Positions 23,408 through 52,501 are shown, numbered from the stretch's first letter. The stretch is 64,000 nucleotides of DNA from Candidatus Desulfarcum epimagneticum (GCA_900659855.1 CAACVI010000012.1:256532-320531); one strand, 5' to 3'. Program-made: numbers and translations. Notes: generated from the sequence alone by a model not told the origin.

Positions 23408-23416
23408 GGAGGCCGC

Positions 23417-24975: not shown

Positions 24976-25250
24976 AAGGGCGCCGCTTCTTTCACAATCT
25001 TTTCGCGAACATACCAGTGGAGGCTTTTTTCTGTGACAACATCTACTTCTCTGCCGAGCAGATCTTCCAAATCCTGCTTAAACGCGATCCTTCTCAGCAG
25101 ACTTCCCTCCATGTCTATCAGAAAATCCGCATCGCTTTCAGAGTTATGGTCTCCCCGCGCAAATGAGCCGAAAATCCGTATGTTTGTCGCTCCGTATTTT
25201 TCCGCCAGCCGCACGATTTGATTCCGACTCTGTCTTATGACATCCGCCAT
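24972..25250 (-). CDS. mntA: MNT-type nucleotidyltransferase antitoxin
   Basis: 92-aa ORF. IRIFGSFARGDHNSESDADFLID is the GS-x10-D-x-D nucleotidyltransferase motif. Confidence 0.85.
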   Translation of the reverse strand: MADVIRQSRNQIVRLAEKYGATNIRIFGSFARGDHNSESDADFLIDMEGSLLRRIAFKQDLEDLLGREVDVVTEKSLHWYVREKIVKEAAPL

Positions 25251-25665
25251 ATTAACAATCTCCCTGTCGCGATAACTTCATATCGTTTTTATATCCAACA
25301 TTGTTTCAATGAGGCATAATCCCAGGCCGGCTCCCCGATTCCCGGCGACGCGGCCGCCGGGAACAAGGCATAAAAAAGAAGAAAAAAAGGGGACGGGCAA
25401 ATAAAACGCTATCAGGAGAAGAAAAATTCTCCGGTTAAACGCCGGGATCAAATTTTTTCATTCCATCCGCCTGCCTGAATTTCAGCGATCCATTGTTCCA
25501 GGGTGGGTTCTCCAAGCAACCCGTCTCGTTCTTTTGTGTAATCGCCGCAACCGGTTTCCGACTGTTGAAGAAAACGAATCATGCCGGTAATCCCCATGTG
25601 TCGGCTCAATATTTCAATATCTGTCCTTCTTATCTGTCGCTATGTCATCGTCTGTGTATTCATAA

Positions 25666-25884
25666 TTATATTTCCTTCTGCAACCATATCAGAGGGTTTT
25701 CAGCTTCTATTTTTAAAAATCGCTTATTCCTTTTGGATGCGTTTATAAGCTTGTCATCTGTTGACAAAAAAATATCAGCATTCCCTCCCTCCGCGCAGGC
25801 AATATGCAAAGCATCAAGGGATTTCAGACTCTTGTAATGCTCTTGATTTTTTCTTCTTATACCACCTTTTCCTGACACGGTCAA
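25666..25884 (-). pseudogene. PIN-domain C-terminal remnant
   Basis: 72-aa ORF with ...SLDALHIACAEGGNADIFLSTDDKLINA. A recognisable N-terminal PIN half is absent. Confidence 0.4.
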
Positions 25885-26042
25885 ATTTTCATCCAGACAT
25901 ATCCCGCGCCAAAAATCAACCCCATGCCGCGCCGAACGCTTACAAAATTTTTATTCGACGAAAAGGCAAATAATGTGCTATGATTGGAACAGACATCGCA
26001 GGCATCCTTGGGATAGCCGTTTTTTGGGGAATGGAGAAAAAT

Positions 26043-37401: not shown

Positions 37402-38703
37402 TTAAACGCCCAGAAACGCCCGGATGCGCGCGATGGGCTTTCTAAAAAGCCGCAGGCCCAGAAAAGTCCGGGGGCCTTTGATCCGGGCGGTTCCCCGCTG
37501 TCCGGGGGCCACGCCTTCAGGAGGCTTTTCCCACAGGGCCTCGGCTGTGATCGATGGAATGTTTTCATCGGACAGCGCCACATCAAAACCAATTCGCTCC
37601 ACAGTGGCGCCGATGGCGCGGAAGGGATTGTGGTCCAGCCTCACCGCCGCCGGGTCCCCTTTTCGGACGAGCCCGGAGTCTCCCGCCGGAATCATGATCC
37701 GGACCTTGGTCTTTAAAGGGTCGGCCACCCGAAGAACCAGGCGGCCGGTTTCCACAAACGCCCCGATGAGGGCGTCGGGATCGTCCAGGATCACCGCCCC
37801 GTCGGCCCCGGAGCGCGCGGTGGAAAGGGCCAGGGTCCGGATGATAAAATCCAGCTCGGCCCGCCGGCTTCGGATTTCAATCTTCTGGGCCGGAATTTTA
37901 GACAGCTCCGCCCCGCTCACGTAGGCGGCGCCCTCCAGCCTGGCCAGCTCGGCTTTGGCCGAGGACAGGGCCCGGGCCGCCTCGTCTCTTTTTTTTTCCA
38001 GAGCCCGGATGTCGTAGGAGAACAGGGCGTCGCCCTTTTGAACCGGCTGTCCCGGCCGGACATGCAGTTTTCGGATGATGCCGTCAAAGGGGGCGAAAAC
38101 ATAATGGGGATTGAGGGGGGCCACCCGGGCCGGGGCGCTGATCCGGGACCGGACCGGAATGAGCGTCAAAAGAACAAAGGCCGCCGCCACCGCCGCCGCG
38201 GCCTTTTTGTTTTTGAAAGCCGTTCGCGCCAAAGGCGTTTTCACGCAGGGCGCCAGCAGGGGGGCGGCCAGGGAAAAGGCCTCCAGGGCCGAAGAGGGAT
38301 CGGTGTTCAACACAATCAAAAGGGCGTGGCCCGGTTTCGCGCCTCTTTGAGCCAAAGGCGCCCACAAAAGCGGCCTCGGCTCCAGGGTCCGAAGAAGCCC
38401 GGCGGCGCGGGGCGTCTTTTTTTCATCCAGGTCCCGCCCCCGGATGACCACGGGGCCGGACCGGCCGGCGAATGCTTTCCGGATTTCTTTCACCCCATAG
38501 GCGAACTCGTTGTCCTGGGAGGGTTTGAGCCCCCCGGAGACGGCCCGGACGCGTTTGAGCCCTTTTAAGGAGACCCAAACAACCCGGGAGCCTTCCAGCT
38601 CCTCCGACAGACGGTCTAAAAAAACCCGGACCGGTTTTTCCCCGGGCGGGGACGCGATCATGGACGAGGCGAGTTTAATGATATTCTGGGCGATTTTATT
38701 CAT
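37402..38703 (-). CDS. HlyD-family periplasmic adaptor-like protein
   Basis: 433-aa ORF with one TM (AAAVAAAFVLLTLIP), a lipoyl-like hairpin (APFDGIIRKLHVRPGQPVQKGDALF), a coiled coil, and beta-barrel-like segments. Confidence 0.7.
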   Translation of the reverse strand: MNKIAQNIIKLASSMIASPPGEKPVRVFLDRLSEELEGSRVVWVSLKGLKRVRAVSGGLKPSQDNEFAYGVKEIRKAFAGRSGPVVIRGRDLDEKKTPRAAGLLRTLEPRPLLWAPLAQRGAKPGHALLIVLNTDPSSALEAFSLAAPLLAPCVKTPLARTAFKNKKAAAAVAAAFVLLTLIPVRSRISAPARVAPLNPHYVFAPFDGIIRKLHVRPGQPVQKGDALFSYDIRALEKKRDEAARALSSAKAELARLEGAAYVSGAELSKIPAQKIEIRSRRAELDFIIRTLALSTARSGADGAVILDDPDALIGAFVETGRLVLRVADPLKTKVRIMIPAGDSGLVRKGDPAAVRLDHNPFRAIGATVERIGFDVALSDENIPSITAEALWEKPPEGVAPGQRGTARIKGPRTFLGLRLFRKPIARIRAFLGV

Positions 38704-38707
38704 TTCG

Positions 38708-39493
38708 TTATTTGATTCTTGAAAGGGGCGCCTCGGACCTGACCGGCCCCATACTCAAAACCCCCCTCATGCCGGGAAGCAGGCCGGATTCGGCGGCCTG
38801 CCTGGAATTGGAAACGCGCCAGTATGTTTTGATAGTGCCGCTGCGCGCGTCCACCAAAGGCTCGGACACGCTCAGCTCGGCGGTGATCCGGGCCCCGATG
38901 TCCGGGACAAAAAACACATGGCTCTTCCCCTTTTCAAAGCCCACCGCCAGTTTTGAAGGCAGGCTGGCCGCGAAATAAAGCCGATTCCGGCTGTAAAGCT
39001 CAATGACGGGCCGGCCCGGCTCGACCCACTCAAAGGGGCGGACCAGGCGCCGGACCACCACGCCGTCAAAGGGCGCGTAAAATTTGGACGCTTTGATCCG
39101 GGAATCGATGATCTCGGCCTGGCTTCGATTGGAAATCATCTCAATCCTGGCTTTTTCGATCTCCTCGTTGGACGCGAACCCGGATCGGTTCAGGCCGGAT
39201 ATCTCCTTCACCCGCCTTTTCCAGTAGGCGCTCTGGGCGTCATGGCTCTTTTTTTGGATAATGAGATCCCGGTGAAAGAGCATGGCCAGGAAATCGCCCT
39301 TTTTCACCGTGTCCCCGGCGTCGGCCTCGAAGCGGATCAGCGCCCCCTCCCGGCTGGCCGAGAGAACGGCGTGGTCTTTGGCCTCCACAATGGCCGGAAA
39401 GGTCTCGGCCGCGCAAATCCCGGGCCCGGCCAGACCCCACAGCGCCCAGGCGAAAAAAAGCCGGGCCATCATCCGAAAACGCGCGTTCCTCAT
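38708..39493 (-). CDS. HlyD-family / biotin-lipoyl-like adaptor protein
   Basis: ORF 38708..39580. The likely start is ATG 39493, overlapping the upstream stop as ATGA. Signal peptide MRNARFRMMARLFFAWALWGLAGPGICAA, then ...SREGALIRFEADAGDTVKKGDFLA...APFDGVVVRRLVRP. Confidence 0.7.
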   Translation of the reverse strand: MRNARFRMMARLFFAWALWGLAGPGICAAETFPAIVEAKDHAVLSASREGALIRFEADAGDTVKKGDFLAMLFHRDLIIQKKSHDAQSAYWKRRVKEISGLNRSGFASNEEIEKARIEMISNRSQAEIIDSRIKASKFYAPFDGVVVRRLVRPFEWVEPGRPVIELYSRNRLYFAASLPSKLAVGFEKGKSHVFFVPDIGARITAELSVSEPLVDARSGTIKTYWRVSNSRQAAESGLLPGMRGVLSMGPVRSEAPLSRIK

Positions 39494-41685
39494 ATCATCC
39501 CCTCCCCGGCCAGACCCCGCCACGCCCACCGTAAAAAAGAAGCCAGCGCGCTTTCCCAGAAAGTGACGCGCGCGAAACACGGCCGCCCGTGCCCGACCGC
39601 CGTTGAAAGACCCCCGGATTCGGGAATGCTGAATATCACGGGATAAAACGCTTTCAGGGGCCTGGCCCGGCCGTCGGGCGACGGCGCGGAGGCCATGGGG
39701 CCGCCGGCGAAATCAAACAGGGAAAGGTTGACGAACGAGTCCGCCGGAAAATCCAGGACCCGCTCCAGGCGGCCTTCCAGGGTGGGGGTCTCCATGTCCT
39801 CAAACACGATCCCGGCCCGGGCCCCCCTTCGGCCCTTGAGCTTTTGGCGGGTCCGCTCATCGGCGTACACCCTGGCCTCATGGCCGGATTCGCCGGCCAC
39901 GGTCATCAGAAAGGCGCTCCGGAAAAGATAGGCGCCCGGCCCCAGGGTCTCGTTGACCCGGACCACCCGGCCCCGGATGGGAGAGCCCACCCGAAGCTGG
40001 GAAAGGGCCTCGTCCGCCGTCCGGACAGCGGCGGCGATCCTTTTCGCCTCCTCGGCCAGCCATTTCCGGTATCCTCCCTCGGCGCCCCCGGCTCTCATCG
40101 TCTCCATGACGCTTCGGGTTTTTTCAAAATCGCGCATAAGGCGGTCCCTTTTAAGCTCCAGCGCCCGGCTTTGGATCCGCAAAAGGGTCTCGCCCGGCGC
40201 CACGGCCTTTCCCAGGGCCGGAAGGGGGCCTGTGATCCGCCCCGAATCCGGCGCCGTGATCTCGGCCACGTCCCGAACCATCAAAAAACCGGGAAGCTTC
40301 TGGGTCCGGGGCATGGGAAACGCCGCCAGGGCCAAAACCGCGGCCGCCGCGGCCCCGGATCGCAGAACCTTTTTTTTCTCGCCCCAAAAACGTCTGTTTT
40401 GAATCAGAAAACGAATTTCAAGCGCCAGGGGAAAAAGAACGATCGCGAACGCCTGGGCCAGGGCCAGAAGGGCCCCCAGCGCCTTGAAGACAAAATGATA
40501 AACCGCGACGGAGATGACGGTGAAAATAAACAGGCGGTACGCCAGCGCGAAGGCGCCGAAGGCCGCCAGGAATTTTCGCCGGGGATGAATCTCAGGCTCG
40601 GGGCCCTGCCAGTCCACCAGGACCCGGCGGACATAATAAAGGAAAAAGGCCCTGGACCGGGACCTGAGATTGCTGACGCGAAGATAGTCCATCAGGATAT
40701 AATAGGCGTCAAAGCGCATCAGGGGGTTCAGATTGGTGAAAAGGGAAGAGGCCAGAGAGGCCCCGGAAAAATAAAACATGACGCTTCTAATCGCCCCTTC
40801 GGGGGAAACCGACCAAAAAAACAGGGCCACTCCGGCCGCCGCGAACTCCGTCATGACCCCGGCGGCGGCGATGACGACCCGGTCCCGCCGGGACCTCAAA
40901 CGCCAGGCGTCGGAGACATCGCAGTAAAAAACCGGCATGAAGACCATGAGGGCGACGCCCATGCGCCGGACAAAAAGCCCCCGGCTCTTGGCCGCGAGCG
41001 CGTGGGCCAGCTCGTGCAGAATTTTCACAAAGGACAGGGCCGCCACAAACGCGGCCGCGCCCAAAGGAGTCAGCAGATGGTTGGCCGTGTGGGCGTAAAG
41101 CTCCCAGTCCTGGAAGGCGAAAAGAATTCCCAGGACCCAAAGAACGGCGCACACATATAAAAAGGGGCGGGACCCCAAAGGCGCGGCCCAGGGCAGAAGT
41201 TTTTCGATAAAGGCGTCGGGTCTGGCCAGAGGGATTTTCACAAACAGATACCCGGTCAGGGCTTTTAAAATCCGGCGGCGACGGTTTGTTTTCACGCCCG
41301 CCCCCGCGGGCGACGGGTCTTTTTTTTCCGGGTCGCCGAAATCCGAAGGCAAAAACGCCAGCCTCTCTTTCTGGAGAAGGGAAAGAAATCCCGCGATATC
41401 CGCCGGCGAGGGTTTGAGGGGCGTTTTGGCCATGAGCTTTTCCACGGCCGAGCGGATGTCGGGCTCGGTCATGAGACACACCGAAAAGGCGGCCTCGAAT
41501 TCCCCCAGCTCGAAATAATGCCCCTGGAGCGGGTCTTCCAGAAGCCATGTTTTCGAGCCGTCGTCTCCAGGCGCCCCCCGGCGCAGCTTCAGCTCGGGGC
41601 GAAGCCCCATCCAGGGATGGGGCAGGCTCTTTTCCACGGCCTTGAAAATATCGGTCTGAGAAGGGGGTGTGCGTTTCATCGCCAT
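39490..41685 (-). CDS. M50 (site-2-protease-like) metalloprotease fused to a C-terminal HlyD-like adaptor region
   Basis: ORF 39490..41808; the likely start is ATG 41685 (MAMKRTPP). It carries the HExxH motif HELAHALAAK in a TM helix and a second M50 motif NLNPLMRFDAYYIL. It has multiple TMs, then a lipoyl-like/coiled-coil region (...GETLLRIQSRALELKRDRL...IRGRVVRVNE). Confidence 0.7.
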   Translation of the reverse strand: MAMKRTPPSQTDIFKAVEKSLPHPWMGLRPELKLRRGAPGDDGSKTWLLEDPLQGHYFELGEFEAAFSVCLMTEPDIRSAVEKLMAKTPLKPSPADIAGFLSLLQKERLAFLPSDFGDPEKKDPSPAGAGVKTNRRRRILKALTGYLFVKIPLARPDAFIEKLLPWAAPLGSRPFLYVCAVLWVLGILFAFQDWELYAHTANHLLTPLGAAAFVAALSFVKILHELAHALAAKSRGLFVRRMGVALMVFMPVFYCDVSDAWRLRSRRDRVVIAAAGVMTEFAAAGVALFFWSVSPEGAIRSVMFYFSGASLASSLFTNLNPLMRFDAYYILMDYLRVSNLRSRSRAFFLYYVRRVLVDWQGPEPEIHPRRKFLAAFGAFALAYRLFIFTVISVAVYHFVFKALGALLALAQAFAIVLFPLALEIRFLIQNRRFWGEKKKVLRSGAAAAAVLALAAFPMPRTQKLPGFLMVRDVAEITAPDSGRITGPLPALGKAVAPGETLLRIQSRALELKRDRLMRDFEKTRSVMETMRAGGAEGGYRKWLAEEAKRIAAAVRTADEALSQLRVGSPIRGRVVRVNETLGPGAYLFRSAFLMTVAGESGHEARVYADERTRQKLKGRRGARAGIVFEDMETPTLEGRLERVLDFPADSFVNLSLFDFAGGPMASAPSPDGRARPLKAFYPVIFSIPESGGLSTAVGHGRPCFARVTFWESALASFLRWAWRGLAGEGMI

Positions 41686-41859
41686 TGACGTAACACGCCC
41701 TTTTTTTTTTTGCCATTTCAAAACGCCCGGGCCGGAAAGAAAGCAAAAACCCTGTTGACCTTTGGGCGCATTTATGTTTATTTTTTCAAATAATTTTGAA
41801 ATTTTCACCTAATTTTTTATTCACAGCCGTTCGCATAATAAATAAGGGGGGCGCCCGCC

Positions 41860-44800
41860 ATGACATTCGGGGCAAACCGGACGCGCCTGAAAAACCGGGC
41901 GGTTTTTTGGGTTCTGATCCTGTCATCCGCAGCTCTTTTTTCCACTCATTTTTTTGCCGGCCGAAAAGACGCCGGCGCCGCTGAAAACGCCGGGGCCGAA
42001 GCGTTTGAGTACTACCGGGAACACGTGGCCCCCATCCTGTCCTCCACCTGCTCGGCCAGGGACGAGAACGGGGCTTTTATCTGCCACGGAACCCCGGACC
42101 TGGCGTCCGAGACGGCCAAAAAGGACCCGGGGGACTACCATTCGGCGCCGTATTCCCAGTCCGAATACTGCCAGACCTGCCACCGGGGCATCAAAAGAAA
42201 ATTCATCTTCGGGCTTGATCCCAGGGGCGAAATCTCCACCGACGCCCAGTTCCTGTTGTCTTACCAGCAGGCGAAAAAACGGGCGCTGCATCTGAAAATT
42301 CCCTTTGCCAAAATCCTTCGCATGCCCCTGGCGGCCCAGGGCGGGGGGTTCGGCCAGTACCACGCCGGGGGGGAAATTTTTGAAAGCCTTTCCAGCGCCG
42401 ATCACCAAAAACTGTCCGAATGGGTCCGGCTGGAGAATGAAAGCGCCCGGGAAAGCGAAAAGAGCGTGGGCGAGGCCGAGCGGTTCTTCGGCGAACAGGT
42501 CCTGCCGGTTTACGCCCGGAACGGGTGCATGAGCCCCAACTGCCACATTTTCAACCACAGCAGTTTTTTCCCGTCTCCCGGAATGGATGTGGACGATCTG
42601 TCCACGCCTCTGGCCGACCGGTTTTCCGCCGAGCAAAGAAGCTTCAACCGCATGACCTCCAAGGGGCTGATCCAGAGCAATGTGTACCTCACCGGCGACG
42701 TGGAGCAGAGCCGAATACTGAAAAAAAACATTCCCATTGAAAAGGGCGGCGTGATTCAGCGCGGCGGCAACAACCAGTTTTTTTCCGGCCCCGACGACCC
42801 CGACTACCAGATCATGAAAAAATGGCTGGAGCTGGAGCGCAAAGAGGTCATTTCCCGTCTGCGAATCGCCGGGAAACCGGTGGACCCCTCACAGGTGGGC
42901 AAAGTCCGGGGAATCGTGTTTGTCAGAACCGATGTGAAAAACCACCGCCGGTACCTGGACGTGGGCAAATACATGCCCGGCGGCGACCTGTTTTTGCTCA
43001 AACTCAAAGACGGGGAGACGCTTGAAAGCGCCCGGGGCGAGCCCGTCAACCTCACCGCCCGGTTTCACCCGGGAAAAAAGGCCGACATCCGGGAGCCCGA
43101 CGTCCGCTACGACGCCGGGGCCGTGATTTTCTCCATGAGAATCGGGGAACAGGACCGCCTGAACGTGTATGAAATCCGGCTGGATGAAAACCTCGACTAT
43201 GTCGAGGGAAGCTTCCGGCGCCTCACCCACGGCCCCGATCTCGTCAACGGAATCAAGGTCCATTACACGGACCCCACCTATGTGCCGGACAGCGCCGACA
43301 AAGCGGCCCTGATCGGGGGTCATAACCTGGACAAAGCCGACATCGTGTTCGCCTCCAATTTAAACGGAGGCGTGGTCCAGAGCGTGGAGCGCGGAATCGT
43401 GGGAGAGGCCGACGGCGGAACCCGGAACGTGATTTTTGATTTCGACCGCCCGGAGACCGACGGCTCCTTTGAGGGAAAACGCATCTATATCGTGGACGGG
43501 GCCAACAAGGGCCAGTGGCGGACCATCGCCCGGTTTCAAAACCGCCTCTTCACCCCTGAAAAACGCTCCTATATCACGGTGGACCGGCCCTTCCCGAACC
43601 CTGTGGACCACTCCGTCATCTATGTGATCGAGCGGGACCCCGAAACCCAGCCGGGATTTCTGCCCTCCTACTCCATGTACGGGATGAAGTATCCCAAACC
43701 CGGGGAGGAAAAGGCCCTGTATGACAAAACCATCTCCCGGATCACCTACGGAATCGCCCAGGAGCTGGATTTGAGCGTCCGCACCACCGGCGAGGTGTTT
43801 TATTCGGGCCAGCGCTCTTTCACGGACAAGTATGAGCGCCCCATCTTTCACATGACCAGCTGCCGCCGGCATCTCGACACCCGGTTCAGCTTCCCCACCC
43901 ATCATGGGAACCGGTCCCAGGTTCTGGTGTACGCCGACAACCACGAGCTTCCCAGCGGCATCGACATCCACGTGGGTCTGGACCCGGACAACCTGTGGGA
44001 GGCGGGGAACTTAAGCGTGTCCGACCACCAGATGGGACCCGGCCTGGAGGCCCGAAACCCCCACGATTTTTCCACCGGCTTCTTTGACGAAGACGGCTTT
44101 CCCATTGTGGACGGCCCGAAAATCATCAACACACGGTTCAATTTCAAGAACGGGAAACAGCCCTCCCACACCCGCTTTGTTTTCAAAAAAATGGCCCTGT
44201 TCCCCTTGAGGGGGCCCCGGGCCGTCTCCAGAACCGGTTTTTCCCCGGGCGGGGCGTTCAAGGACTCCGTTCCCCTGCCCGACGGCGACATCCTGGTCTC
44301 CCACTCGCCCGCCCCCATCAACCATCTGGACCCCGGGGCCGCCCCCGACTTCGACCTTTATATCGTCAGGCCGGACCCCAGCTTTCACACGCCGGGAGGA
44401 AAGGGCGTTCCCAAAGTGAGGAAAATTCGCCTCTCCGCCGCCTCGGCCGCGGGCCTCTCCGATGTCCAGGCCTACCCGGTTTACGTCCGGATGAAGCCCA
44501 AAATCAACGCGGCCAGACGCGCCAGGCGGGACCATCTCATCCGGCCCCCGGAAATGCCGGACAACGACCACAGGCCCGCCATCTATCTGGAGCGGAACTA
44601 CCTTTTAATCGACGCCATCATGGACGATCCTTCTCCGGTGGGCAAAAACGTGGCTTACGCCACCAATCCCCTGACGGGGAAAAAGACCGCGCCTGAAGAC
44701 GAGGTGAAATACGTGAGGATGGTGGAGGTTCTGCCGGTCCATCCCGACGACGCGGCCCCTGTGGCCTCGGGGCTCATCGCAAACCGGGACCCCGAAAGCA

Positions 44801-45576
44801 CGCTGATCAGCAACGGCATTCATTTGAAAAAACGCATCGTGTGCGAAGTTCCCCTGGAGGCGGACGGCTCCGTGTACATCAAGGTCCCGTCCAAGACCCC
44901 CATGTCCATCCAGAGCTTAAACAAAGACAAAATGGCCCTTCGCCAGTCGGCCCGGCTCTACTTCTTCGCGCCCGGGGAGAAATTCACCATATCGCCCTCC
45001 CCCAGCGAAACCTTTCAAACCTGCGGCGCCTGCATGGGCTCCATGTCTAAAAGCCCCGAAAAACTCTTCGGCCCGACGAACATGTTCTCCGGCCAGGAAA
45101 AGGTCCGGGCCATCGCCCTGGCCAAGGGCGAGCCTCAAGAATACGGAATCGATCCCGACGACCGGATCTCCATTGATTTCGTCCGGAACATCCAGCCCAT
45201 TTTCGATAAAAACTGCGCGGCGTGCCACTCCGGGGAAAATCCCCCGGCCGGGCTTTCCCTTTCCGGTGAAAAAACGACCTATTATAACGCGGCCTACGAA
45301 AATCTCATGGAGCTGGAAGACCCCCAAAGCGGCTGGCATTCCCGGAAGAAGTACGTGAATGAGCGCGGCGCGCTGGCCATTGAAAGCTATCTCATGGAAA
45401 AAATCCTCGGCCGGGAGCTGAAAGCCCGCCGGGACCTGTCCGGAGATTTTCCCCATCCGGGCAAACGCCTGATGAAAAAACGCAAAGTCAACGTCCCGCC
45501 GCTGACCCGGGGCGAAAAAATGACACTGGTCAGATGGATCGACATGGGCGCGGTTTACAGGGGGGTGAGGGAATGA
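41860..45576 (+). CDS. Large secreted multi-domain protein with three PSCyt-like modules and haem c motifs (possible HzsA-related architecture)
   Basis: 1238-aa ORF with a signal/anchor (AVFWVLILSSAALFSTHFFAG). Canonical CxxCH occurs at CQTCH and CAACH. Non-canonical spacings are C-x4-CH (CMSPNCH) and C-x10-CH (CSARDENGAFICH), each preceded by an F..V.P.. context as in the planctomycetal cytochrome domain. The C-terminus has ...LVRWIDMGA. The long middle region looks beta-rich. Confidence 0.6.
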   Translation: MTFGANRTRLKNRAVFWVLILSSAALFSTHFFAGRKDAGAAENAGAEAFEYYREHVAPILSSTCSARDENGAFICHGTPDLASETAKKDPGDYHSAPYSQSEYCQTCHRGIKRKFIFGLDPRGEISTDAQFLLSYQQAKKRALHLKIPFAKILRMPLAAQGGGFGQYHAGGEIFESLSSADHQKLSEWVRLENESARESEKSVGEAERFFGEQVLPVYARNGCMSPNCHIFNHSSFFPSPGMDVDDLSTPLADRFSAEQRSFNRMTSKGLIQSNVYLTGDVEQSRILKKNIPIEKGGVIQRGGNNQFFSGPDDPDYQIMKKWLELERKEVISRLRIAGKPVDPSQVGKVRGIVFVRTDVKNHRRYLDVGKYMPGGDLFLLKLKDGETLESARGEPVNLTARFHPGKKADIREPDVRYDAGAVIFSMRIGEQDRLNVYEIRLDENLDYVEGSFRRLTHGPDLVNGIKVHYTDPTYVPDSADKAALIGGHNLDKADIVFASNLNGGVVQSVERGIVGEADGGTRNVIFDFDRPETDGSFEGKRIYIVDGANKGQWRTIARFQNRLFTPEKRSYITVDRPFPNPVDHSVIYVIERDPETQPGFLPSYSMYGMKYPKPGEEKALYDKTISRITYGIAQELDLSVRTTGEVFYSGQRSFTDKYERPIFHMTSCRRHLDTRFSFPTHHGNRSQVLVYADNHELPSGIDIHVGLDPDNLWEAGNLSVSDHQMGPGLEARNPHDFSTGFFDEDGFPIVDGPKIINTRFNFKNGKQPSHTRFVFKKMALFPLRGPRAVSRTGFSPGGAFKDSVPLPDGDILVSHSPAPINHLDPGAAPDFDLYIVRPDPSFHTPGGKGVPKVRKIRLSAASAAGLSDVQAYPVYVRMKPKINAARRARRDHLIRPPEMPDNDHRPAIYLERNYLLIDAIMDDPSPVGKNVAYATNPLTGKKTAPEDEVKYVRMVEVLPVHPDDAAPVASGLIANRDPESTLISNGIHLKKRIVCEVPLEADGSVYIKVPSKTPMSIQSLNKDKMALRQSARLYFFAPGEKFTISPSPSETFQTCGACMGSMSKSPEKLFGPTNMFSGQEKVRAIALAKGEPQEYGIDPDDRISIDFVRNIQPIFDKNCAACHSGENPPAGLSLSGEKTTYYNAAYENLMELEDPQSGWHSRKKYVNERGALAIESYLMEKILGRELKARRDLSGDFPHPGKRLMKKRKVNVPPLTRGEKMTLVRWIDMGAVYRGVRE

Positions 45577-48500
45577 TGAACACACACACACGCAAATCGA
45601 ATCGGACCAGGGCCTTTTTGCCGGCGCTTCTTTTCCTGGCGGCCCTCTTTGTCTTTCATCCGGGCGAGCGCCCCCGCGCGGCCGGCCCCGGTGCCGCCGG
45701 AGTCTCCAACCCCTCCGTATACGGGATTTTAACCAGCGACCGGTGGGCCTTCGGCGCCTCCTATGAGCGGCGGGACCTGGAGCCGGTGAAAAACAACAAT
45801 CCCTACCCCGAGCCCCAGCCCGAACGGGACCATCCCAAGGCCATGGAGATCACTCCGGACGGCAAAAAACTCTACATCGCCCTGGCCGGAAACGAGGCCG
45901 AGCCGGGAAACCAGGTGGCGGTGTTTGACGTGGAGAAAAAAACAGTCGTCAAAAAAATCAGGGTGGGCTCAAGCCCCTGGCACATCGCCATGCATCCCAA
46001 GGGAAGATTCGCCGTGGTCATCAACCGGCTCTCCAATTACGCCTCGGTCATCGACACGGCCCTGGACGAGCCGGCCGGGGAAATCCCCCTGGACTTTTAC
46101 TGCCAGTATATGGTGTTCAACAAAAAAGGGACCCGGGCCTATGTGAGCAACCGCTACCTGGGCCAGGCGCTGGTCCTGGATGTCAAAGCCGGACGGGATC
46201 GCTTCAAGGCCCGGATGCAAACCCTGGGGGGCTTTGATTTGAAAACCTTTGAAAAAAAGGTTTTTCCGGCTTTAACAAAATCCTGCGGCGCCGCGGCCTG
46301 CCACGGCGTGTCCCGGGGGGACTTTTACGCGGGGGAAAATGTGTTAAAGGCCTTTTTTTCCGCCATTGAAAATTCCACTCCCGGCGACCCCGACGACAGC
46401 CTTCTGCTCAAAGCCGTCCGGCCCCGGGCCGAAGGGGGATTCGCCGACGATCTGTCCGGGGCCAACTTCCACGCCGGAGGAAAGGTCGCATGGTCCAAAA
46501 AGGATCGCGGATACAAAAAAACCGCCCGGTGGATCTCCGAAGCCTCCGAAGGCCCGGGGATTCCCGTGGGGAACTTCGGCTCCAAGCCCTTCAGCCTTCA
46601 GCTCAGCCATGACGAAAAATACCTGTACGTCGGCAACCTGGGGACCCAGGACATCTCCATCATTGATCTGAAACAAAAAAAAGAGGCGGGCGGGATTTAC
46701 ACCCAGAACGTGGTTCTGGACCTGGCTCTTTTTCATGACAAAAAAACCGACAAAGAGATGCTTTTCGCCCTTTCCATGGGGCTGGGTTTCGGCGCGGCCC
46801 GGGAAAGGGACCCCTTTGGGGGCGAGACCGAGGACGCGCGAAATCCGGCGGCCCAGTTCAGCGTCCGCCGGGACATCGACACCACAGAGCCCCTTCCTGT
46901 CCATCAGCAGAAAATATTGGGGGCATTCGACGCCATCGACGGCACGGCGGCCTTTAAAATGGCGGACATTCAAAACGATGTCATCGCCATTGACGCCGGG
47001 GCGCTGAAAATTCCCAAAAAAATCCCCTCGCCGCGCCTGGACTATGTGTTAAAGGCCAACCGGTACGAGGCCCACAGGGCCTGGACCCGGTACACGTCGG
47101 ATTCCGCCGAGGTTCTGCCCCAGGAGCCCAGCGGGGACATCCCGCCGGAGCTTCAGCGGGTCATCGGCGCCTTCCCGGAGGCGGCCAGAGTCTGCGGCGA
47201 CCGTCTCTACACCGTGATGCTGGGCTCTTATGAGCTGGTGGAATGGAAAATCAACCCCTCGGCCGCCGAGCCCTCGGACTGCCTGGAGCCCGTGGCCGTC
47301 TATCCCACCGGGATCATGCCCCGGGAAGTGGTCTGCGGGCCGGCCGAAACCGTCGCGGAAGGCCTTCTTTTTGTGAGCAATTTCCTCGGGGAGACCGTGA
47401 GTGTCATTGACCGGAAGTCCGGCGAATCCAAAGAACACGTCGTGGGAAACCTGTCCCGGCCTTTCCCGGACAGCAACGCGGAGCGGGGCCAGATGTTTGT
47501 CAACACCGCCGTTTTCTCCGTGGACGGGGACACCTCTTGCATGTCCTGCCATATTTACGACACCAGCGACGCCCGGGGATGGGGCGCCGGACAGGCCATC
47601 GCCCAGACGCGGGACGGCAAATTCGTCAACGGCGGGTCCCTGGCCATTCCCCAGATCAAAAATCTCTTCGCCACCCAGCCCTTTTATTTCGAGGGCACCC
47701 ACACCTGCTTCGACGCCCAGTTCGACGACGCCCGCGAGCATGTGGCCCTTCAGGGGTTTCTGGAGCCCAACCCCCAGGGCGACTTCACCGGGGTGTCCCA
47801 CCCGGTCCCGCCGGGCCAAAGGCCCGAAGAGCATGAGGAGATCCAGGACAAAATGTCCACGGACTCCTTTGGCGACCTCTACTTTGATTTAAGGGAGCGC
47901 CGGGATGAGTTCATACGCCGGGCCTCCATGAAATATTTTGGAAAGGCGTTCAACTTCCGGGATTTCCAGCGCTTTATCGGGGAATTCCAGGCCGCCGAAA
48001 CCCGGCTTCTGCCCAATCCCCACGACCCGGCCAACCCGTCCGTGGCGCGGGGAAAACGCCTCTTCAACCGGTTGGACACCGGCTGCGTGACGTGCCACAG
48101 GCCCCCGGAATTCACCAACAAAACCGAAACTCTTTCCAACAACCATGAGCGGGTCCTTCCCTCCATCATCAGCTTCACCCGAAGGGAAAAGGCCTTCACC
48201 CTGGTGGGGCCCCACTGGATGGACTCCGTCAACGGATACAAGCGGGACCTGGAATACTGGGAAAAGGGCCGGGTGGAGAGACAGGAGGGCCATATGACCG
48301 TCTTTCCCTTAAGGGGCCTGTTTGACCGCCCCTTCGCCTTTCTGCACCACGGCCGGGCCCGGTCCGTCCGGGAGGTCATCGCCTCCCCGGACCATTACGC
48401 GCTGAGAAAATTCAAGTATCCCCCGCTGAGGGGAGGAGAAGAAATCCGGGAGGACCGCCGGGAGCGGGGATTCAATGAGCTGAGCTTTATCGAGGAGCGG

Positions 48501-48590
48501 ACCTATGTCCCGGACACCCACGGCGGAACCTCCCATTTGAGCGCCGTTCAGATCAGGGATCTGGAAAATTTCCTTCTTTCCATCGAATAA
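45573..48590 (+). CDS. Secreted YVTN-type beta-propeller fused to a di-haem cytochrome c peroxidase/MauG-like domain
   Basis: The start ATG 45573 overlaps the upstream stop (ATGA). Signal peptide RAFLPALLFLAALFVF. Propeller repeats are present (LYIALAGNEAEPGNQVAVFDV..., PWHIAMHPKGRFAVVINRLSNYASVIDT, LYVGNLGTQDISIIDL). There is an inserted C-x4-CH (CGAAACH). The C-terminal CCP-like pair is SCMSCHIYD and GKRLFNRLDTGCVTCHRPPEFTN, followed by ...LENFLLSI. Confidence 0.7.
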   Translation: MMNTHTRKSNRTRAFLPALLFLAALFVFHPGERPRAAGPGAAGVSNPSVYGILTSDRWAFGASYERRDLEPVKNNNPYPEPQPERDHPKAMEITPDGKKLYIALAGNEAEPGNQVAVFDVEKKTVVKKIRVGSSPWHIAMHPKGRFAVVINRLSNYASVIDTALDEPAGEIPLDFYCQYMVFNKKGTRAYVSNRYLGQALVLDVKAGRDRFKARMQTLGGFDLKTFEKKVFPALTKSCGAAACHGVSRGDFYAGENVLKAFFSAIENSTPGDPDDSLLLKAVRPRAEGGFADDLSGANFHAGGKVAWSKKDRGYKKTARWISEASEGPGIPVGNFGSKPFSLQLSHDEKYLYVGNLGTQDISIIDLKQKKEAGGIYTQNVVLDLALFHDKKTDKEMLFALSMGLGFGAARERDPFGGETEDARNPAAQFSVRRDIDTTEPLPVHQQKILGAFDAIDGTAAFKMADIQNDVIAIDAGALKIPKKIPSPRLDYVLKANRYEAHRAWTRYTSDSAEVLPQEPSGDIPPELQRVIGAFPEAARVCGDRLYTVMLGSYELVEWKINPSAAEPSDCLEPVAVYPTGIMPREVVCGPAETVAEGLLFVSNFLGETVSVIDRKSGESKEHVVGNLSRPFPDSNAERGQMFVNTAVFSVDGDTSCMSCHIYDTSDARGWGAGQAIAQTRDGKFVNGGSLAIPQIKNLFATQPFYFEGTHTCFDAQFDDAREHVALQGFLEPNPQGDFTGVSHPVPPGQRPEEHEEIQDKMSTDSFGDLYFDLRERRDEFIRRASMKYFGKAFNFRDFQRFIGEFQAAETRLLPNPHDPANPSVARGKRLFNRLDTGCVTCHRPPEFTNKTETLSNNHERVLPSIISFTRREKAFTLVGPHWMDSVNGYKRDLEYWEKGRVERQEGHMTVFPLRGLFDRPFAFLHHGRARSVREVIASPDHYALRKFKYPPLRGGEEIREDRRERGFNELSFIEERTYVPDTHGGTSHLSAVQIRDLENFLLSIE

Positions 48591-48617: not shown

Positions 48618-49442
48618 ATGAAAAAAACCATTTGCGTGATTTTGTTTTTGTCCCTGGCCGTCTGGGCCGCCGACTCCAACGCCGCCGGGCCCGATCGCCA
48701 AAGGGATTCCTCCCCCATGATCCTGGTTTACGCCGGGGATTTTATCATGGGACAGGGCGAAACCCAAAAAACCGTCCATGTGAAAAGTTTTCACATCGAC
48801 AAGTATGAGGTGTCCAACGCCCAGTACCGCGTGTTTCTGGACTGGGTGAAAAAACATTCCGACAAAACCGTCCGGCGCCCGGATCAGCCCCGGGGCAAAG
48901 ACCACACCCCGCGGTTCTGGAAGCCCTTTCGCCCCGCCATTTTTAAAAAAACCGGGATGGCCGCCCTTCAGCGGTTTGACGAAAAAATCTTCACGGAAGA
49001 CCGCCGTCCGGTGACGGGAATCGACTGGCACGACGCCTACGCCTACGCCAAATGGGCCGGGAAACGCCTTCCCACCGAGGCGGAGTGGGAAAAGGCGGCC
49101 CGGGGCGTCACGGGGTCGCGTTGGCCCTGGGGGAACCGGTGGGTCTTTGAAAACTGCAACAGCGGGGGCTACGAATGGAAAGGGGAGCGCGACGGCCACA
49201 TCTACCCGGCGCCGGTGGACGCCTATCCCCAGGGAAAAAGCCCCTATGGCGTTTACAACGCGGCGGGAAACGTCTCGGAATGGGTGGACGCCGATTTTGA
49301 TTCCGAAAGGGGCCTGAAAACGGTCAAGGGCGGGGGGTCGGACTCCTATCCCAGCTCAGTGGCGCCGTCGGCCCGGCGGGGCCGCGAACCGGATTTCAGG
49401 CATTTCACCCTGGGGTTTCGATGCGCGAAGGACGCGAACTGA
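48618..49442 (+). CDS. Secreted FGE-sulfatase/SUMF1-domain protein
   Basis: 274-aa ORF with signal peptide MKKTICVILFLSLAVWA. FHIDKYEVSNAQY...PVTGIDWHDAYAYAKWAGKRLPTEAEWEKAARG...GNVSEWV...GFRCA. Confidence 0.8.
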   Translation: MKKTICVILFLSLAVWAADSNAAGPDRQRDSSPMILVYAGDFIMGQGETQKTVHVKSFHIDKYEVSNAQYRVFLDWVKKHSDKTVRRPDQPRGKDHTPRFWKPFRPAIFKKTGMAALQRFDEKIFTEDRRPVTGIDWHDAYAYAKWAGKRLPTEAEWEKAARGVTGSRWPWGNRWVFENCNSGGYEWKGERDGHIYPAPVDAYPQGKSPYGVYNAAGNVSEWVDADFDSERGLKTVKGGGSDSYPSSVAPSARRGREPDFRHFTLGFRCAKDAN

Positions 49443-49463: not shown

Positions 49464-50369
49464 ATGGGAATGACACCAATGGGCAAAATAAGACATGCGA
49501 TGATCTTTTTATTTGTTTCCGGCGCCTTTCTGGCCCTTTCGCCGGCCGCTTCGGCGGAGGACCGGCTTCCGGACGGCGTTTCTTTCAAAAACGGAAAGTA
49601 TATCAGCGAAAAAGACCAGGCCCAGATGGCTTTCATCCCGGAAGGGGCCTTTGTCATGGGAAGCCGGTCGGGAAACGACAATGAAAAACCGGCCCACGCC
49701 GTGTGGCTGTCGGATTTTTACATGGACATTTCCGAGGTGAATAACGCCCGTTTTGAAAAATTCGTGAAAGAATCGGGATATCGGCCCCAGGGCCCCTGGC
49801 GTCGGGGATACGCCCCGGGCCAGGGAGACTATCCCGTCCGGTTCGTGACCTGGCATGACGCCAACGCCTACGCGGACTGGGCCGGGAAGCGCCTTCCCAC
49901 CGAGGCGGAGTGGGAAAAGGCGGCCCGGGGTGAAAAGAGCCTCGTTTACCCCTGGGGAGACGACTGGAACCCCCGGTTCGTGGAAAACCCGCAAAACGAC
50001 TTTTCACCCGTAAAGACAGACGCCTTTCCCGAGCGGGCCGCCCCTTACGGCTGCCTGGGAATGGGCGGAAATGTCTGGGAATGGGTGGCCGACTGGTACG
50101 ACCGGTTTTATTACCGGGAATTTGAAGACGGATCAGTGGCCGAAAACCCCGCCGGACCCGAAGACGGCGCGCCTCCCCTGAAACGTTTCATGGACGCCGG
50201 AGCCGGGGCCGGAAACGAGAGAAGCACACTAAAGGTCATCCGGGGCGGAGGGAGCTGGGGCCGTTTCGCGAAGGAAAACGCCCGGACGTCCAAAAGAATG
50301 TGGGCCAATCCATCCTACTGGCTCAACGACACGGGATTCCGGTGCGCCGTTTCGGCGCCCCGTAAATAA
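49464..50369 (+). CDS. Secreted FGE-sulfatase/SUMF1-domain protein (paralogue)
   Basis: 301-aa ORF with signal peptide ...IFLFVSGAFLALSPAASA. FYMDISEVNNARF...PVRFVTWHDANAYADWAGKRLPTEAEWEKAARG...GNVWEWV...GFRCA. Confidence 0.8.
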   Translation: MGMTPMGKIRHAMIFLFVSGAFLALSPAASAEDRLPDGVSFKNGKYISEKDQAQMAFIPEGAFVMGSRSGNDNEKPAHAVWLSDFYMDISEVNNARFEKFVKESGYRPQGPWRRGYAPGQGDYPVRFVTWHDANAYADWAGKRLPTEAEWEKAARGEKSLVYPWGDDWNPRFVENPQNDFSPVKTDAFPERAAPYGCLGMGGNVWEWVADWYDRFYYREFEDGSVAENPAGPEDGAPPLKRFMDAGAGAGNERSTLKVIRGGGSWGRFAKENARTSKRMWANPSYWLNDTGFRCAVSAPRK

Positions 50370-50676: not shown

Positions 50677-50722
50677 AATATTCCCCGATTGACATAGTAC
50701 CAAAAAATGGTACAATAATATT

Positions 50723-50977
50723 GTGAAACGAAAACACAAAAAGACATTAGAACTGATTTTTGCGCGACCCATAAGCGGCAATATCAAGTGGTCTGATATT
50801 GAGTCTCTTTTTAGAGAGTTGGACGCAAAAATATCTGAACGGAAAGGTTCCCGTATCGGCGTTGCTCTTTTTGGTGAAATCCAGGTTTTTCATAGACCCC
50901 ATCCCTCACCGGATACTAATAAGGGAGCTGTTTCAAGCATTCGAAAATGGTTGGAGAAAAACGGAGTCAAGCCATGA
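50723..50977 (+). CDS. hicA: HicA-family toxin
   Basis: 84-aa ORF (GTG start). KKTLELIFARPISGNIKWSDIESLFRELDAKISERKGSRIGVAL...FHRPHP. It is paired with hicB by an ATGA overlap. Confidence 0.7.
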   Translation: MKRKHKKTLELIFARPISGNIKWSDIESLFRELDAKISERKGSRIGVALFGEIQVFHRPHPSPDTNKGAVSSIRKWLEKNGVKP

Positions 50978-51312
50978 TGAATATTATGAATATTGATGGT
51001 TATAAGGCCATCATTAAATACGACCCCGCAATTGATCAATTCCGTGGAGAATTTATCGGTCTTAATGGAGGAGCCGATTTTTACGCCACAAATATTGAGG
51101 AACTTCGGAAAGAGGGTAAAACTTCTCTCAAGGTGTTTCTTGATATCTGTAAGGAAGAAGGAATCAATCCGCGCAAAGAGTATTCCGGAAAATTTAATTT
51201 AAGAGTTCCCTCCGGACTGCATGCTGAAATTGCCGCCAAAGCGGCCGCTGAAGGCAAAAGCCTGAATAAATGCGTCGCTGATTTGTTAGGCGACGCCATC
51301 CAGTGTCAGTAA
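50974..51312 (+). CDS. hicB: HicB-family antitoxin with C-terminal RHH
   Basis: MMNIMNIDGYKAIIKYDPAIDQFRGEFIGLNGGADFYATNIEELRKEGKTSLKVFLDICKEEG..PRKEYSGKFNLRVPSGLHAEIAAKAAAEGKSLN. Confidence 0.85.
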   Translation: MMNIMNIDGYKAIIKYDPAIDQFRGEFIGLNGGADFYATNIEELRKEGKTSLKVFLDICKEEGINPRKEYSGKFNLRVPSGLHAEIAAKAAAEGKSLNKCVADLLGDAIQCQ

Positions 51313-51390: not shown

Positions 51391-51891
51391 ATGGCGCGAA
51401 TCACTTTGCAAGGGGCTTCCATCAACACCTGCGGGGACCTGCCCGCCGCGGGGGACCCGGCCCCGGGTTTTTTACTGACGAAAACCGACCTGTCTGATTT
51501 TTCGCTGTCCGAATACCGGGGAAAAAAGGTGGTCCTCAACATCTTCCCCAGCATTGACACCCCGGTGTGCTCCCTGTCCGTGGAGCGCTTCAACCATGAG
51601 ATGGGCAAGCGCGAAAACGCTGCGGTCATCTGCGCCTCAAGGGACCTTCCATTCGCCCACGCCCGGTTCTGCGCCGCCAATGGGATCGACCATGTGGTCT
51701 CGGCCTCGGAGATGCGGGACGTCCGTTTCGGGGAAAGCTACGGGGTCCGAATCATCGACGGCCCCATGGAGGGCCTTCTGGCCCGGGCCGTGGTGGTCAT
51801 TGACGAAGAGGGCAAGGTTCTGTATTCCCAGCTGGTGGGGGAAATCGCCGATGAGCCGGACTACGACGCCGCGCTGGCGGCTGTGGGATAA
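51391..51891 (+). CDS. tpx: Thiol peroxidase (atypical 2-Cys peroxiredoxin)
   Basis: 166-aa ORF. GDPAPGFLLTKTDLSDFSLSEYRGKKVVLNIFPSIDTPVCSLS...FCAANGI is the Tpx signature. Confidence 0.9.
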   Translation: MARITLQGASINTCGDLPAAGDPAPGFLLTKTDLSDFSLSEYRGKKVVLNIFPSIDTPVCSLSVERFNHEMGKRENAAVICASRDLPFAHARFCAANGIDHVVSASEMRDVRFGESYGVRIIDGPMEGLLARAVVVIDEEGKVLYSQLVGEIADEPDYDAALAAVG

Positions 51892-51904
51892 AAAAGGGAG
51901 GGGC

Positions 51905-52501
51905 ATGATGCCGTCATACAGCGGAATCAATCACCTGGCCATGGTCACGCCGGATATGGACGAAACCATCCGCTTCTGGAGGGATTTTCTGGGGATGCGT
52001 CTGGTGGCGGGTCTGGGAAACAGCCGGTTCCGCCACTACTTTTTCGAGATATCCGAAACCGATCTCATCGCGTTTTTTGAATGGCCGGACGTGGAAAAAA
52101 ATCCGCCCAAGGACCACGGGGCGCCGGTGAAAGGCCCCTTTTCCTTTGACCATGTCTCCATCGGGGTGGAGTCCGACGAGGATCTCCATGAGCTGATCGA
52201 CAGGTTCAGGGCCGCCGGAATGTGGGTGTCTGAGATCATCGACCACGGGTTTATCCATTCCATCTACGCCTTTGACCCCAACCATATTCCCATTGAATTC
52301 AGCGCGCCCACCCAGGTGGATATTCGAAAAAACCCCATGATGAAGGACCGGCATCCGTCCGAAACCACACTGGAGGGCCCGGACCCCGTTCCCGGGCGCC
52401 GGCCCGAAGCTCACCGGGCCGGGAAAGGAGGAAGGGACGGGTCCGGGCATGGGGTTTTCCCGGGCGAGGGGATTGTGTTTGCCGGAAAAACCCCGGATTG
52501 A
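51905..52501 (+). CDS. VOC (glyoxalase/bleomycin-resistance/dioxygenase) family protein
   Basis: In-frame ATG of track ORF 51554..52501. MMPSYSGINHLAMVTPDMDETIRFWRDFLGMRLV...FDHVSIGVES...IHSIYAFDPNHIPIEF. The upstream part of the track ORF overlaps tpx and is rejected. Confidence 0.75.
   Translation: MMPSYSGINHLAMVTPDMDETIRFWRDFLGMRLVAGLGNSRFRHYFFEISETDLIAFFEWPDVEKNPPKDHGAPVKGPFSFDHVSIGVESDEDLHELIDRFRAAGMWVSEIIDHGFIHSIYAFDPNHIPIEFSAPTQVDIRKNPMMKDRHPSETTLEGPDPVPGRRPEAHRAGKGGRDGSGHGVFPGEGIVFAGKTPD

Follow-up and report, generated by a model that had tools for sequence, protein, structure and literature searches.

This study concerns a four-gene operon of Candidatus Desulfarcum epimagneticum, a symbiont of the sulfate-reducer type; the operon lies in a 64,000-nucleotide (nt) stretch of its genome (GCA_900659855.1, CAACVI010000012.1:256532-320531), called the window below; coordinates count from its first letter. 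Two long genes, A and B, encode secreted multihaem proteins homologous to the subunits of hydrazine synthase (HZS), and two shorter genes, FGE1 and FGE2, encode secreted proteins of the FGE-sulfatase fold. All four are on the same strand with minimal spacing and make up one transcription unit, A-B-FGE1-FGE2. An earlier note on this DNA had described a gene pair with the domain logic of HZS. That logic holds for each of the three subunits (alpha, beta, gamma), and A and B are indeed coupled, but the unit has four genes, the two FGE genes having been missed. The genes and their principal features are as follows.

41860..45576 (+): gene A, secreted HZS-alpha-like multihaem protein, 1238 amino acids (aa); Pfam, NCBIfam, PDB profile, Foldseek and hhalign
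41860..41976 (+): N-terminal signal peptide or anchor (aa 1-39) of A; basic n-region, then hydrophobic AVFWVLILSSAALF
42049..42087 (+): haem motif 1 of A, C-x10-CH, aa 64-76; C64, C75 and H76 invariant
42169..42183 (+): haem motif 2 of A, CQTCH, aa 104-108; CX2-3CH in 29 of 37 homologues, not in a distant clade described below
42526..42546 (+): haem motif 3 of A, CMSPNCH (CX4CH), aa 223-229; both Cys and the His invariant
42877..44679 (+): beta-rich propeller of A, about aa 340-940; AlphaFold2 secondary structure (predicted local distance difference test, pLDDT, mostly >90) and Foldseek
44701..44982 (+): HZS_alpha middle domain (PF18582) of A, aa 948-1041; Pfam and hhalign
45022..45036 (+): CGACM of A, aa 1055-1059, at the position equivalent to haem alphaI; hhalign and alignment, both Cys invariant
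45139..45561 (+): C-terminal cytochrome c domain of A, homologue of the HZS-alpha haem alphaII domain; profile search and hhalign
45214-45228 (+): CAACH of A, aa 1119-1123; invariant
45573..48590 (+): gene B, secreted fused HZS-beta/gamma-like protein, 1005 aa; start overlaps the stop of A
46284..46304 (+): CGAAACH (CX4CH) of B, aa 238-244; invariant in 44 homologues
47415..48587 (+): dihaem HZS-gamma/CCP-like domain of B, aa 615-1005; profile search and hhalign
47538-47552 (+): CMSCH of B, aa 656-660; verified by position
48084-48098 (+): CVTCH of B, aa 838-842; verified by position
48618..49442 (+): FGE1, secreted FGE-sulfatase-fold protein, 274 aa; PF03781, syntenic in related loci
49464..50369 (+): FGE2, secreted FGE-fold paralogue, 301 aa, last gene of the operon; domain search and synteny

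The stop codon of A (TGA, 45574-45576) overlaps the start codon of B (ATG, 45573-45575) by 4 nt, giving ATGA at 45573..45576, and a purine-rich GGGGGGTGAGGG lies just 5' of the coupled ATG. FGE1 starts 27 nt past B and FGE2 21 nt past FGE1. Both long open reading frames (ORFs) are intact, and A has the 1238 aa reported for it. The 1018 aa reported for B correspond to the longest ORF, which begins at an in-frame ATG at 45534, whereas the coupled start gives 1005 aa. We favor the shorter version, since a homologue of 1002 aa (92% identical) spans 100% of it. The haem motifs quoted earlier for both proteins were all found, at verified coordinates. Inspection of the sequences revealed signal-like N-termini on A, B, FGE1 and FGE2, in keeping with the secretion proposed for the first two. 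At 100% identity, the product of A matches 'conserved exported hypothetical protein [Candidatus Desulfarcum epimagneticum]'.

A and HZS alpha are true homologues. As a single sequence, the C-terminal 140 aa of A match residues 634-768 of HZS-alpha (5C2V_A, E 5e-13). A 37-member A profile searched against the PDB recovered 5C2V_A at E 1.9e-30 and no other PDB sequence; the match falls into four collinear segments over the propeller, middle and haem domains, in which the propeller of A is collinear with the N-terminal propeller domain of HZS-alpha. The AlphaFold2 model of mature A (pLDDT 83.7, predicted template-modelling score (pTM) 0.84) gave 5C2V_A as the top Foldseek match (E 1.3e-29, TM 0.62 on the target), the runner-up reaching 2.6e-5. 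For profile-profile alignment, full reference sequences of HzsA, HzsB and HzsC were taken from anammox metagenome contigs (L046-L055); these replaced a 135-aa HzsA fragment, which as a query had returned only short fragments. Alignment of A with three HzsA sequences by hhalign gave 99.8% probability (E 1.7e-28) over 384 columns. The 'DGSVYIKVP...' segment, which had been linked to HzsA-related proteins, belongs to PF18582, the middle domain of HZS_alpha in Pfam (E 2.5e-10; 41.2 bits, gathering cutoff 26.6), and the long beta-rich middle region noticed earlier is the modelled propeller. Approximately 300 residues precede the HZS-alpha-like part and carry three extra c-haem motifs. The label of planctomycetal-cytochrome modules given earlier has only the short visible pattern F..V.P.L...C..CH, common to PSCyt1 and A, behind it: PSCyt1 (PF07635) gave no Pfam match at E<=1 in A or B. 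Eight of the 12 cysteines of A are invariant among 37 homologues, far above chance.

B is a fused homologue of HZS beta and gamma. Its YVTN repeats (TIGR02276, E 1.6e-14) and the top Foldseek match of its structure model (pLDDT 84.0, pTM 0.89), HZS-beta 5C2V_B (E 8e-16, TM 0.70), bear out the propeller assignment made earlier; the comparison with 5C2V proposed at that time thus places HZS subunits first for the models of both proteins. A helical haem module (about aa 222-330 of the model) is inserted into the propeller and contains CGAAACH. When a profile of the C-terminal 390 aa was searched against the PDB, HZS-gamma was the sole significant match (E 1.2e-11), whereas ordinary dihaem CCPs remained at E>0.3. 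hhalign of the dihaem domain against HzsC gave 97.3% probability (E 1.9e-11). The domain had been called CCP/MauG-like. A dihaem domain is present and resembles HZS-gamma, but B scores 18.8-22.4 bits for CCP_MauG (PF03150) against a gathering score of 25.6; such sub-threshold matches occur in 25 of 31 members of the B family, and NCBIfam gives weak MbnH and His-Xaa-Ser MauG-like matches in B. Six of the 11 cysteines of B are invariant among 44 homologues, again far above chance, and A and B together carry up to eight conserved c-haem motifs.

Compared to anammox HZS (Kuenenia, PDB 5C2V; NCBIfam NF052339-NF052342), A retains the propeller, PF18582 and the C-terminal CxxCH haem domain, with the Cys pair of the haem alphaI site kept and aligned, and B joins a 7-bladed YVTN propeller (beta) to a dihaem gamma-like domain, fused as in Scalindua. 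Such a beta-gamma fusion was mentioned in the earlier note for some anammox lineages and is documented there (NCBIfam NF052342; PMC12758564). In both systems the genes are adjacent and co-evolving and the products secreted. The differences are also clear. A exceeds HZS-alpha by 430 aa and has three additional haem motifs in its N-terminal part, and the propeller of B carries the inserted haem module. Met stands for alphaHis587 and Phe/Val for gammaHis144, and alphaTyr591 and the cross-linking gammaCys165 are missing. The gene order is alpha then beta-gamma rather than beta, gamma, alpha. The operon has FGE-fold partners, HDH/HAO genes are missing from the window, and its carriers are bacteria other than anammox ones.

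Within the overall picture set out further on, we are highly confident of an HZS-like complex that is not an HZS. Signature residues are lost, equivalog cutoffs are missed and no HDH/HAO gene lies in the window. By hhalign, C1055-G-A-C1058-M1059 of A falls exactly on C583-S-G-C586-H587 of HzsA, the haem alphaI attachment site, so that Met1059 takes the place of alphaHis587, while alphaTyr591 corresponds to a variable hydrophobic column in hhalign and in the homologue alignment. At haem alphaI of HZS, His587 is turned to a Zn ion and Tyr591 is the iron ligand (PMC12758564). Haem alphaII of HZS is bound at a CxxCH with bis-His ligation, His772 being the distal ligand. The CAACH of A is invariant; HzsA His772 lies opposite a non-conserved column of A, with an invariant His1199 (in PHP) nearby, in a gapped region. 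The gamma subunit of HZS has two signatures of its own: gammaCys165 gives a unique third thioether, and gammaHis144 stands where CCP has Trp. In the alignment of B homologues no conserved Cys occurs at the gammaCys165 position between the two CxxCH, and the gammaHis144 column (F16/V9/L3/other in 31 sequences) has neither the HZS His nor the CCP/MauG Trp. NCBIfam bit scores against equivalog cutoffs were 54.1/800 for alpha, 48.8/1250 for the BC fusion, 41/560 for beta and 25/625 for gamma, that is, 15-25 times under. Besides A and B, the window holds no HAO/HDH-like or other CxxCH-rich ORF; two short ORFs (104 and 170 aa) have one CxxCH motif each. The neighbors of the operon within the 64 kb, as distinct from the whole genome, are unrelated to anammox genes. 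These results agree with the earlier expectations that no other anammox gene is nearby and that the chemistry is other than hydrazine synthesis.

Both A and B have many full-length uncharacterised homologues. An exhaustive search of 1.84 billion cluster representatives with the single mature A sequence gave 72 relatives at E<=1e-30, a number that rises to 191 at 1e-10 and to 841 at 1e-3. A locus survey with one genome per species yielded 45 loci, all from metagenome-assembled genomes (MAGs), labelled Desulfobacterales, Elusimicrobiota, Gynuella, Planctomycetota, Myxococcota, Bacteriovoracaceae, Thiomargarita, Acidobacteria, Akkermansiaceae, Chromatiales and others, and overall at least 8 non-anammox phyla are represented; the family is widespread among Planctomycetota, Verrucomicrobiota, Myxococcota, Desulfobacterota and others. 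B homologues include those of the cultured Pelagicoccus sp. SDUM812002 and Actomonas aquatica; carriers of the A-B family are anaerobes and aerobes alike. The co-occurrence survey suggested earlier showed A and B to be neighbors in 31 of 31 related loci holding both, and across loci the identities of A and B to their counterparts in the window are correlated (Spearman 0.87). Desulfarcum A is 67% identical to its homologue in an Elusimicrobiota MAG and 66-68% to that in a Desulfobacterales MAG, near-equal values that point to horizontal spread. Genes conserved as neighbors in the 45 loci code for FGE-fold proteins, ResB/CcsA, DAHP synthase or Rnf-like proteins. Some genomes carry two nearby HZS-alpha-like genes: a second A paralogue, 31-33% identical, lies 7-8 kb off in loci L013 (21059-23494) and L014 (20891-23602).

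FGE1 and FGE2 match PF03781 at E 1e-47 and 2e-47, respectively. The best PDB match of FGE1 is SUMF2/pFGE (1Y4J), an inactive paralogue, and FGE1 itself lacks the catalytic Cys pair (C336/C341 in human FGE), having 'dsYPssv' where Streptomyces FGE (6MUJ) has 'dsYCnry' and no first Cys. Read by eye, FGE2 is likewise without the pair. Similarity of both to PvdO, EgtB and SenA is weak, with 38-97 bits for PvdO/EgtB against cutoffs of 360-500. FGE1 and FGE2 resemble SUMF2/pFGE, PorK/GldK and PvdO in the PF03781 fold and in secretion, and SUMF2 also in lacking the Cys pair. They differ from these proteins in having no sulfatase or type IX secretion system context, in forming a conserved pair of paralogues linked to HZS-like genes, and in that the FGE domain is fused to an alpha-like protein in one lineage. 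In 23 loci A and B have FGE-like genes beside or between them, the order being A-B-FGE-FGE in a close clade (the window plus 29 of the 37 aligned proteins, 13 genome loci) and B-FGE-A in a distant one. On metagenome contig SDBT01019996.1 (L056, 4234-7488) a single 1084-aa protein has a propeller and two CxxCH, together with an HZS_alpha middle domain matched at E 1e-31 and, at the C-terminus, an FGE-sulfatase domain matched at E 9e-41. This fusion is an independent sign that the alpha-like and FGE modules work together.

The two clades also differ in the haem motifs of A. Close-clade proteins have C-x10-CH as first motif, the extra CX2-3CH, the CX4CH, and CxxCM at the alphaI site, whereas distant-clade proteins have canonical CxxCH at both the first motif and the alphaI site. 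CX3CH and CX4CH intermediates were seen at the first motif and trace its growth by loop insertion. ResB/CcsA genes, coding for a system II haem lyase, adjoin the operon in 8 of the 13 loci with CxxCM but in none of the 29 with CxxCH (Fisher p 1e-5); the operon-linked CcsA paralogue scores 169.7 bits, just under the equivalog cutoff of 187.6. Two loci (L011 and L013) have the long first motif yet CxxCH at alphaI and no lyase genes, which indicates that the lyase tracks CxxCM and not C-x10-CH. RnfC-like/RnfD-like genes occur in 19 of the 29 CxxCH-type loci, and several of these loci add NuoF-like fusions, small unassigned membrane proteins, or a multihaem cytochrome of ~160-200 aa directly downstream. 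The presence of Rnf-like genes by the CxxCH-type pair suggests that low-potential cytoplasmic electrons reach the periplasmic complex, and such delivery would imply reductive catalysis.

At least 9 close-clade loci (among them L002, L003, L005, L007, L008, L011, L012 and L014) have type I-beta DAHP synthase genes within or next to the A-B-FGE operon, often in two copies; the L005 copy scores 354.9 bits against a cutoff of 335. They are missing from the window and from the distant-clade loci.

HZS long counted as an orphan enzyme. Recognition of its relatives outside anammox bacteria dates only from 2023-2025, and no function has been assigned to any of them. Dalcin Martins et al. (2023) speculated about a wider family of HZS-like enzymes (PMC10732223). 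Outside anammox bacteria, Hagglund et al. (December 2025) then described alpha-like genes co-localised with fused beta-gamma-like ones, in Planctomycetota, Desulfobacterota and other groups, and distinguished HZS-like clades I-IV in which the catalytic residues are not conserved, with examples in Syntrophobacter fumaroxidans, Aquisphaera, Thermogutta and Opitutus (PMC12758564). The general phenomenon is thus already published and the locus is less novel than the earlier note assumed, while the large-alpha, FGE-linked architecture, CxxCM and the lyase and Rnf links are new. A and B resemble the published pairs in the co-localisation of alpha-like and fused beta-gamma-like genes with alpha upstream, in not keeping the HZS catalytic residues, and in TM-scores to HZS of about 0.6-0.7. 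In the accessible part of its BLAST tables, however, the alpha homologues are ~430-750 aa, compared to 1238 aa for A. The neighbors in clades I-III are FG-GAP/CRTAC1 and ABC-SBP genes; the operon here has two FGE-fold genes, and no FG-GAP/CRTAC1 gene occurs in the window. The published beta-gamma proteins have Trp at gammaHis144, with gammaCys165 kept in clade I, where B has Phe/Val and no Cys. The text of PMC12758564 does not contain CxxCM, operon-linked ResB/CcsA, Rnf-like modules or an FGE link, and a literature search for hydrazine synthase with formylglycine returned nothing relevant. In its supplementary BLAST table, one genome of the A-B family (L007) is present only as a weak row. The A-B family may be its clade IV, which is sparsely described, or a separate, fifth clade.

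We consider it probable, with appreciable room for doubt, that A-B-FGE1-FGE2 is a periplasmic multihaem enzyme complex with the ancestry and architecture of HZS that is not HZS; within this picture homology, architecture, synteny and the lost HZS signature residues are demonstrated, and we infer complex formation, the direction of electron flow, the substrate and CxxCM haem attachment. Electrons would enter through the extra haem modules, with up to eight haems per A-B pair. The four extra modules, three on A and one on B, could wire electrons to both buried haem pockets, that is, to two putative catalytic haems, a gammaI-like one in B and an alphaI-like one in A. In true HZS, electrons are needed at the gamma site only. 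An electron-fed alpha site would suggest redox catalysis at both sites, for example a stepwise N-oxide reduction. The buried haems would convert a small periplasmic molecule in a multi-electron step, most likely a reduction, and N-oxides such as NO and NH2OH are, by analogy only, the leading candidate substrates. In the CxxCM clade a dedicated system-II lyase (ResB/CcsA), whose genes adjoin the operon in related genomes and are missing from the window, would attach the alphaI-like haem through the unusual CxxCM motif. FGE1 and FGE2 would be accessory subunits. Reductive small-molecule chemistry seems to us a tentative proposal, slightly more doubtful than not; N-oxide substrates specifically would be less likely than such chemistry overall.

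Wolinella offers a parallel for the lyase. It has dedicated lyases, NrfI for the CxxCK of NrfA and CcsA1 for the CX15CH of MccA. As there, paralogous ResB/CcsA genes adjoin the gene of a cytochrome with a non-CxxCH motif; here, in contrast, the motif would be CxxCM, the lyase genes are missing from the window, and lyase specificity for CxxCM is read from synteny. By analogy, a dedicated lyase may serve the CxxCM haem site. The stronger proposal, that CxxCM is a natural c-haem motif with Met for His, installed by ResB/CcsA, and that A-B-FGE is a two-active-site enzyme for an unrecognised periplasmic transformation of nitrogen compounds or other small molecules, we regard as unlikely, though it deserves attention; it would allow, as possibilities, that NO is reduced all the way to ammonium, or that N-N bond chemistry takes place in bacteria other than anammox ones.

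Several points count against these proposals. Haem lyases normally require the His of the motif. A literature search for CXXCM haem found no natural precedent, only an engineered mitochondrial cytochrome c variant, and in the engineered-CXXCM study HCCS reportedly attached no haem to cytochromes without the motif His. Haem binding by CxxCM is accordingly best called putative. The CxxCM clade is probably monophyletic, so that the CxxCM-lyase correlation probably reflects one evolutionary event and the Fisher p overstates independence. Within its 64 kb, the window has no ResB/CcsA, Rnf-like or DAHP synthase gene. The DAHP synthase genes of related loci are left unexplained by the favored model. 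The A/B/FGE complex is itself putative, and, since no member of a non-anammox HZS-like clade has been characterised, substrate and direction of catalysis are drawn purely from indirect argument.

Among other explanations, a MauG/MbnH-type system, in which the dihaem domain of B would oxidise residues of a partner (an FGE protein, A or an exported peptide) to give a cofactor or modified product, appears improbable to us. The dihaem domain does share with CCP, MauG and MbnH (PF03150) two CxxCH at equivalent spacing and, via HZS-gamma, the fold class; the sub-threshold PF03150 and weak MbnH/MauG-like matches noted above place it in that superfamily. The FGE pair provides conserved secreted partners, a divergent cluster with a HExxH protease and HlyD proteins, resembling those for ribosomally synthesised and post-translationally modified peptides (RiPPs), adjoins the operon, and the DAHP synthase genes of related loci may point to chemistry of aromatic compounds. 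However, the sole significant solved relative of the domain is HZS-gamma, not MauG or MbnH, and the inter-haem Trp used for MauG-type hole hopping is replaced by Phe/Val in B. The domain is fused to a propeller, and its strictly conserved partner is an alpha-like subunit, as in HZS; the RiPP-like cluster lies by A/B in 0 of the 45 related loci.

We give little credence to a periplasmic peroxidase, or a complex detoxifying reactive oxygen or nitrogen species, in which the CCP-like domain would reduce H2O2 with electrons supplied through the other haems and the HZS-like parts would be structural. The CCP-like dihaem domain, a redoxin/peroxiredoxin gene 1 kb downstream and the distribution of the family over anaerobes and aerobes are consistent with it, but ordinary CCP profiles and structures fit poorly (E>0.3) and the CCP Trp is missing from B. 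A four-protein machine of ~2,800 aa with a second conserved haem pocket exceeds what a peroxidase needs, and the redoxin gene lies behind a separate promoter-like site and HicB and is not syntenic elsewhere.

Very unlikely in our view is periplasmic maturation of an aromatic metabolite or chromophore, with the FGE proteins as catalysts in the manner of PvdO and the haem proteins as an oxidant relay. The weak similarity of FGE1 and FGE2 to PvdO, EgtB and SenA and the frequent, often duplicated DAHP synthase genes of close-clade loci would fit this scheme; the PvdO and EgtB scores are nonetheless far under their cutoffs, the DAHP synthase genes are confined as described above, and no conserved nonribosomal peptide synthetase, polyketide synthase or exporter genes were found in related loci. 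A genuine hydrazine synthase in a cryptic anammox or hydrazine-producing host is scarcely credible, since its homology to each of the three subunits of HZS and its HZS-like pairing of alpha with beta-gamma are outweighed by the loss of alphaHis587, alphaTyr591, gammaCys165 and gammaHis144, scores 15-25 times under the equivalog cutoffs, no HDH/HAO or other multihaem gene in the 64 kb, a spread over at least 8 non-anammox phyla, and the judgement that other HZS-like clades are non-HZS as well (PMC12758564).

Returning to the HZS-like multihaem complex, it is of value chiefly for the testable CxxCM-plus-lyase hypothesis and for offering a clearly delimited operon of wide distribution. The clade adds a larger architecture to the known HZS relatives, with extra haem modules, FGE-fold partners and, according to sub-clade, Rnf-like or ResB/CcsA neighbors. 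If true, CxxCM haem attachment that needs a linked CcsBA would extend the rules of cytochrome c maturation and give a handle on ancestral HZS-like machines, with bearing on anammox evolution and on N-oxide chemistry that may go unrecognised in the periplasm of common marine and sediment bacteria. Were it a mere electron-transfer or peroxidase system, the finding would be an ordinary family annotation.

Two promoter-like sites border the operon.

41755..41784 (+): weak sigma-70-like site TTGACC-18-TATTTT in the AT-rich 51-nt gap 5' of A; 9/12 match, not above shuffle expectation
50689-50716: strong 11/12 sigma-70-like site with extended -10, before a HicB gene; promoter scan

The first is a possible operon promoter; promoter and terminator scans gave site counts no better than shuffles. 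The second precedes a HicB-family antitoxin gene (50947-51312), and the HZS-like operon ends before it, with FGE2. Farther downstream, a redoxin ORF (51391-51891) shares ~340 nt, in another frame, with a glyoxalase-family ORF (51554-52501, TTG start); as the domain of the latter begins only at aa 124, the true start of that ORF is probably past the redoxin stop. A Prismane-family gene at 52607-54577 (-) is CooS, the catalytic subunit of anaerobic CO dehydrogenase (588.7 bits against 478). It had been considered as Hcp hydroxylamine reductase, which would have offered a link to NH2OH, and was rejected on this score.

Upstream of A, at 37402-41808 (-), a 772-aa M50-type HExxH intramembrane metalloprotease fused to an HlyD-like domain is encoded together with two HlyD adaptor genes. 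The protease has a sub-threshold match to a 'daptide biosynthesis' RiPP protease, and the cluster looks like a module for peptide maturation and export. It was rejected as part of the A-B system because it is syntenic in no related locus. A low-GC block at 8000-26000 (0.41-0.45, compared to about 0.59 elsewhere) with mobile-element genes is probably an acquired island. It contains an IS200-like Y1 transposase (12328-13260), DDE transposases (13903-15150 and 17070-18239) and a Mu/Tn7-like rve and AAA_22 pair (22127-24223). Its cargo includes an ATP-grasp D-Ala-D-Ala-ligase-like gene (15187-16947), a gamma-glutamyltranspeptidase gene (18540-20246) and an N-formylglutamate amidohydrolase gene (20243-20935). 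At the edge of the block, a NicO-family nickel/cobalt transporter gene lies with a DUF1007 gene at 9187-10832 (-).

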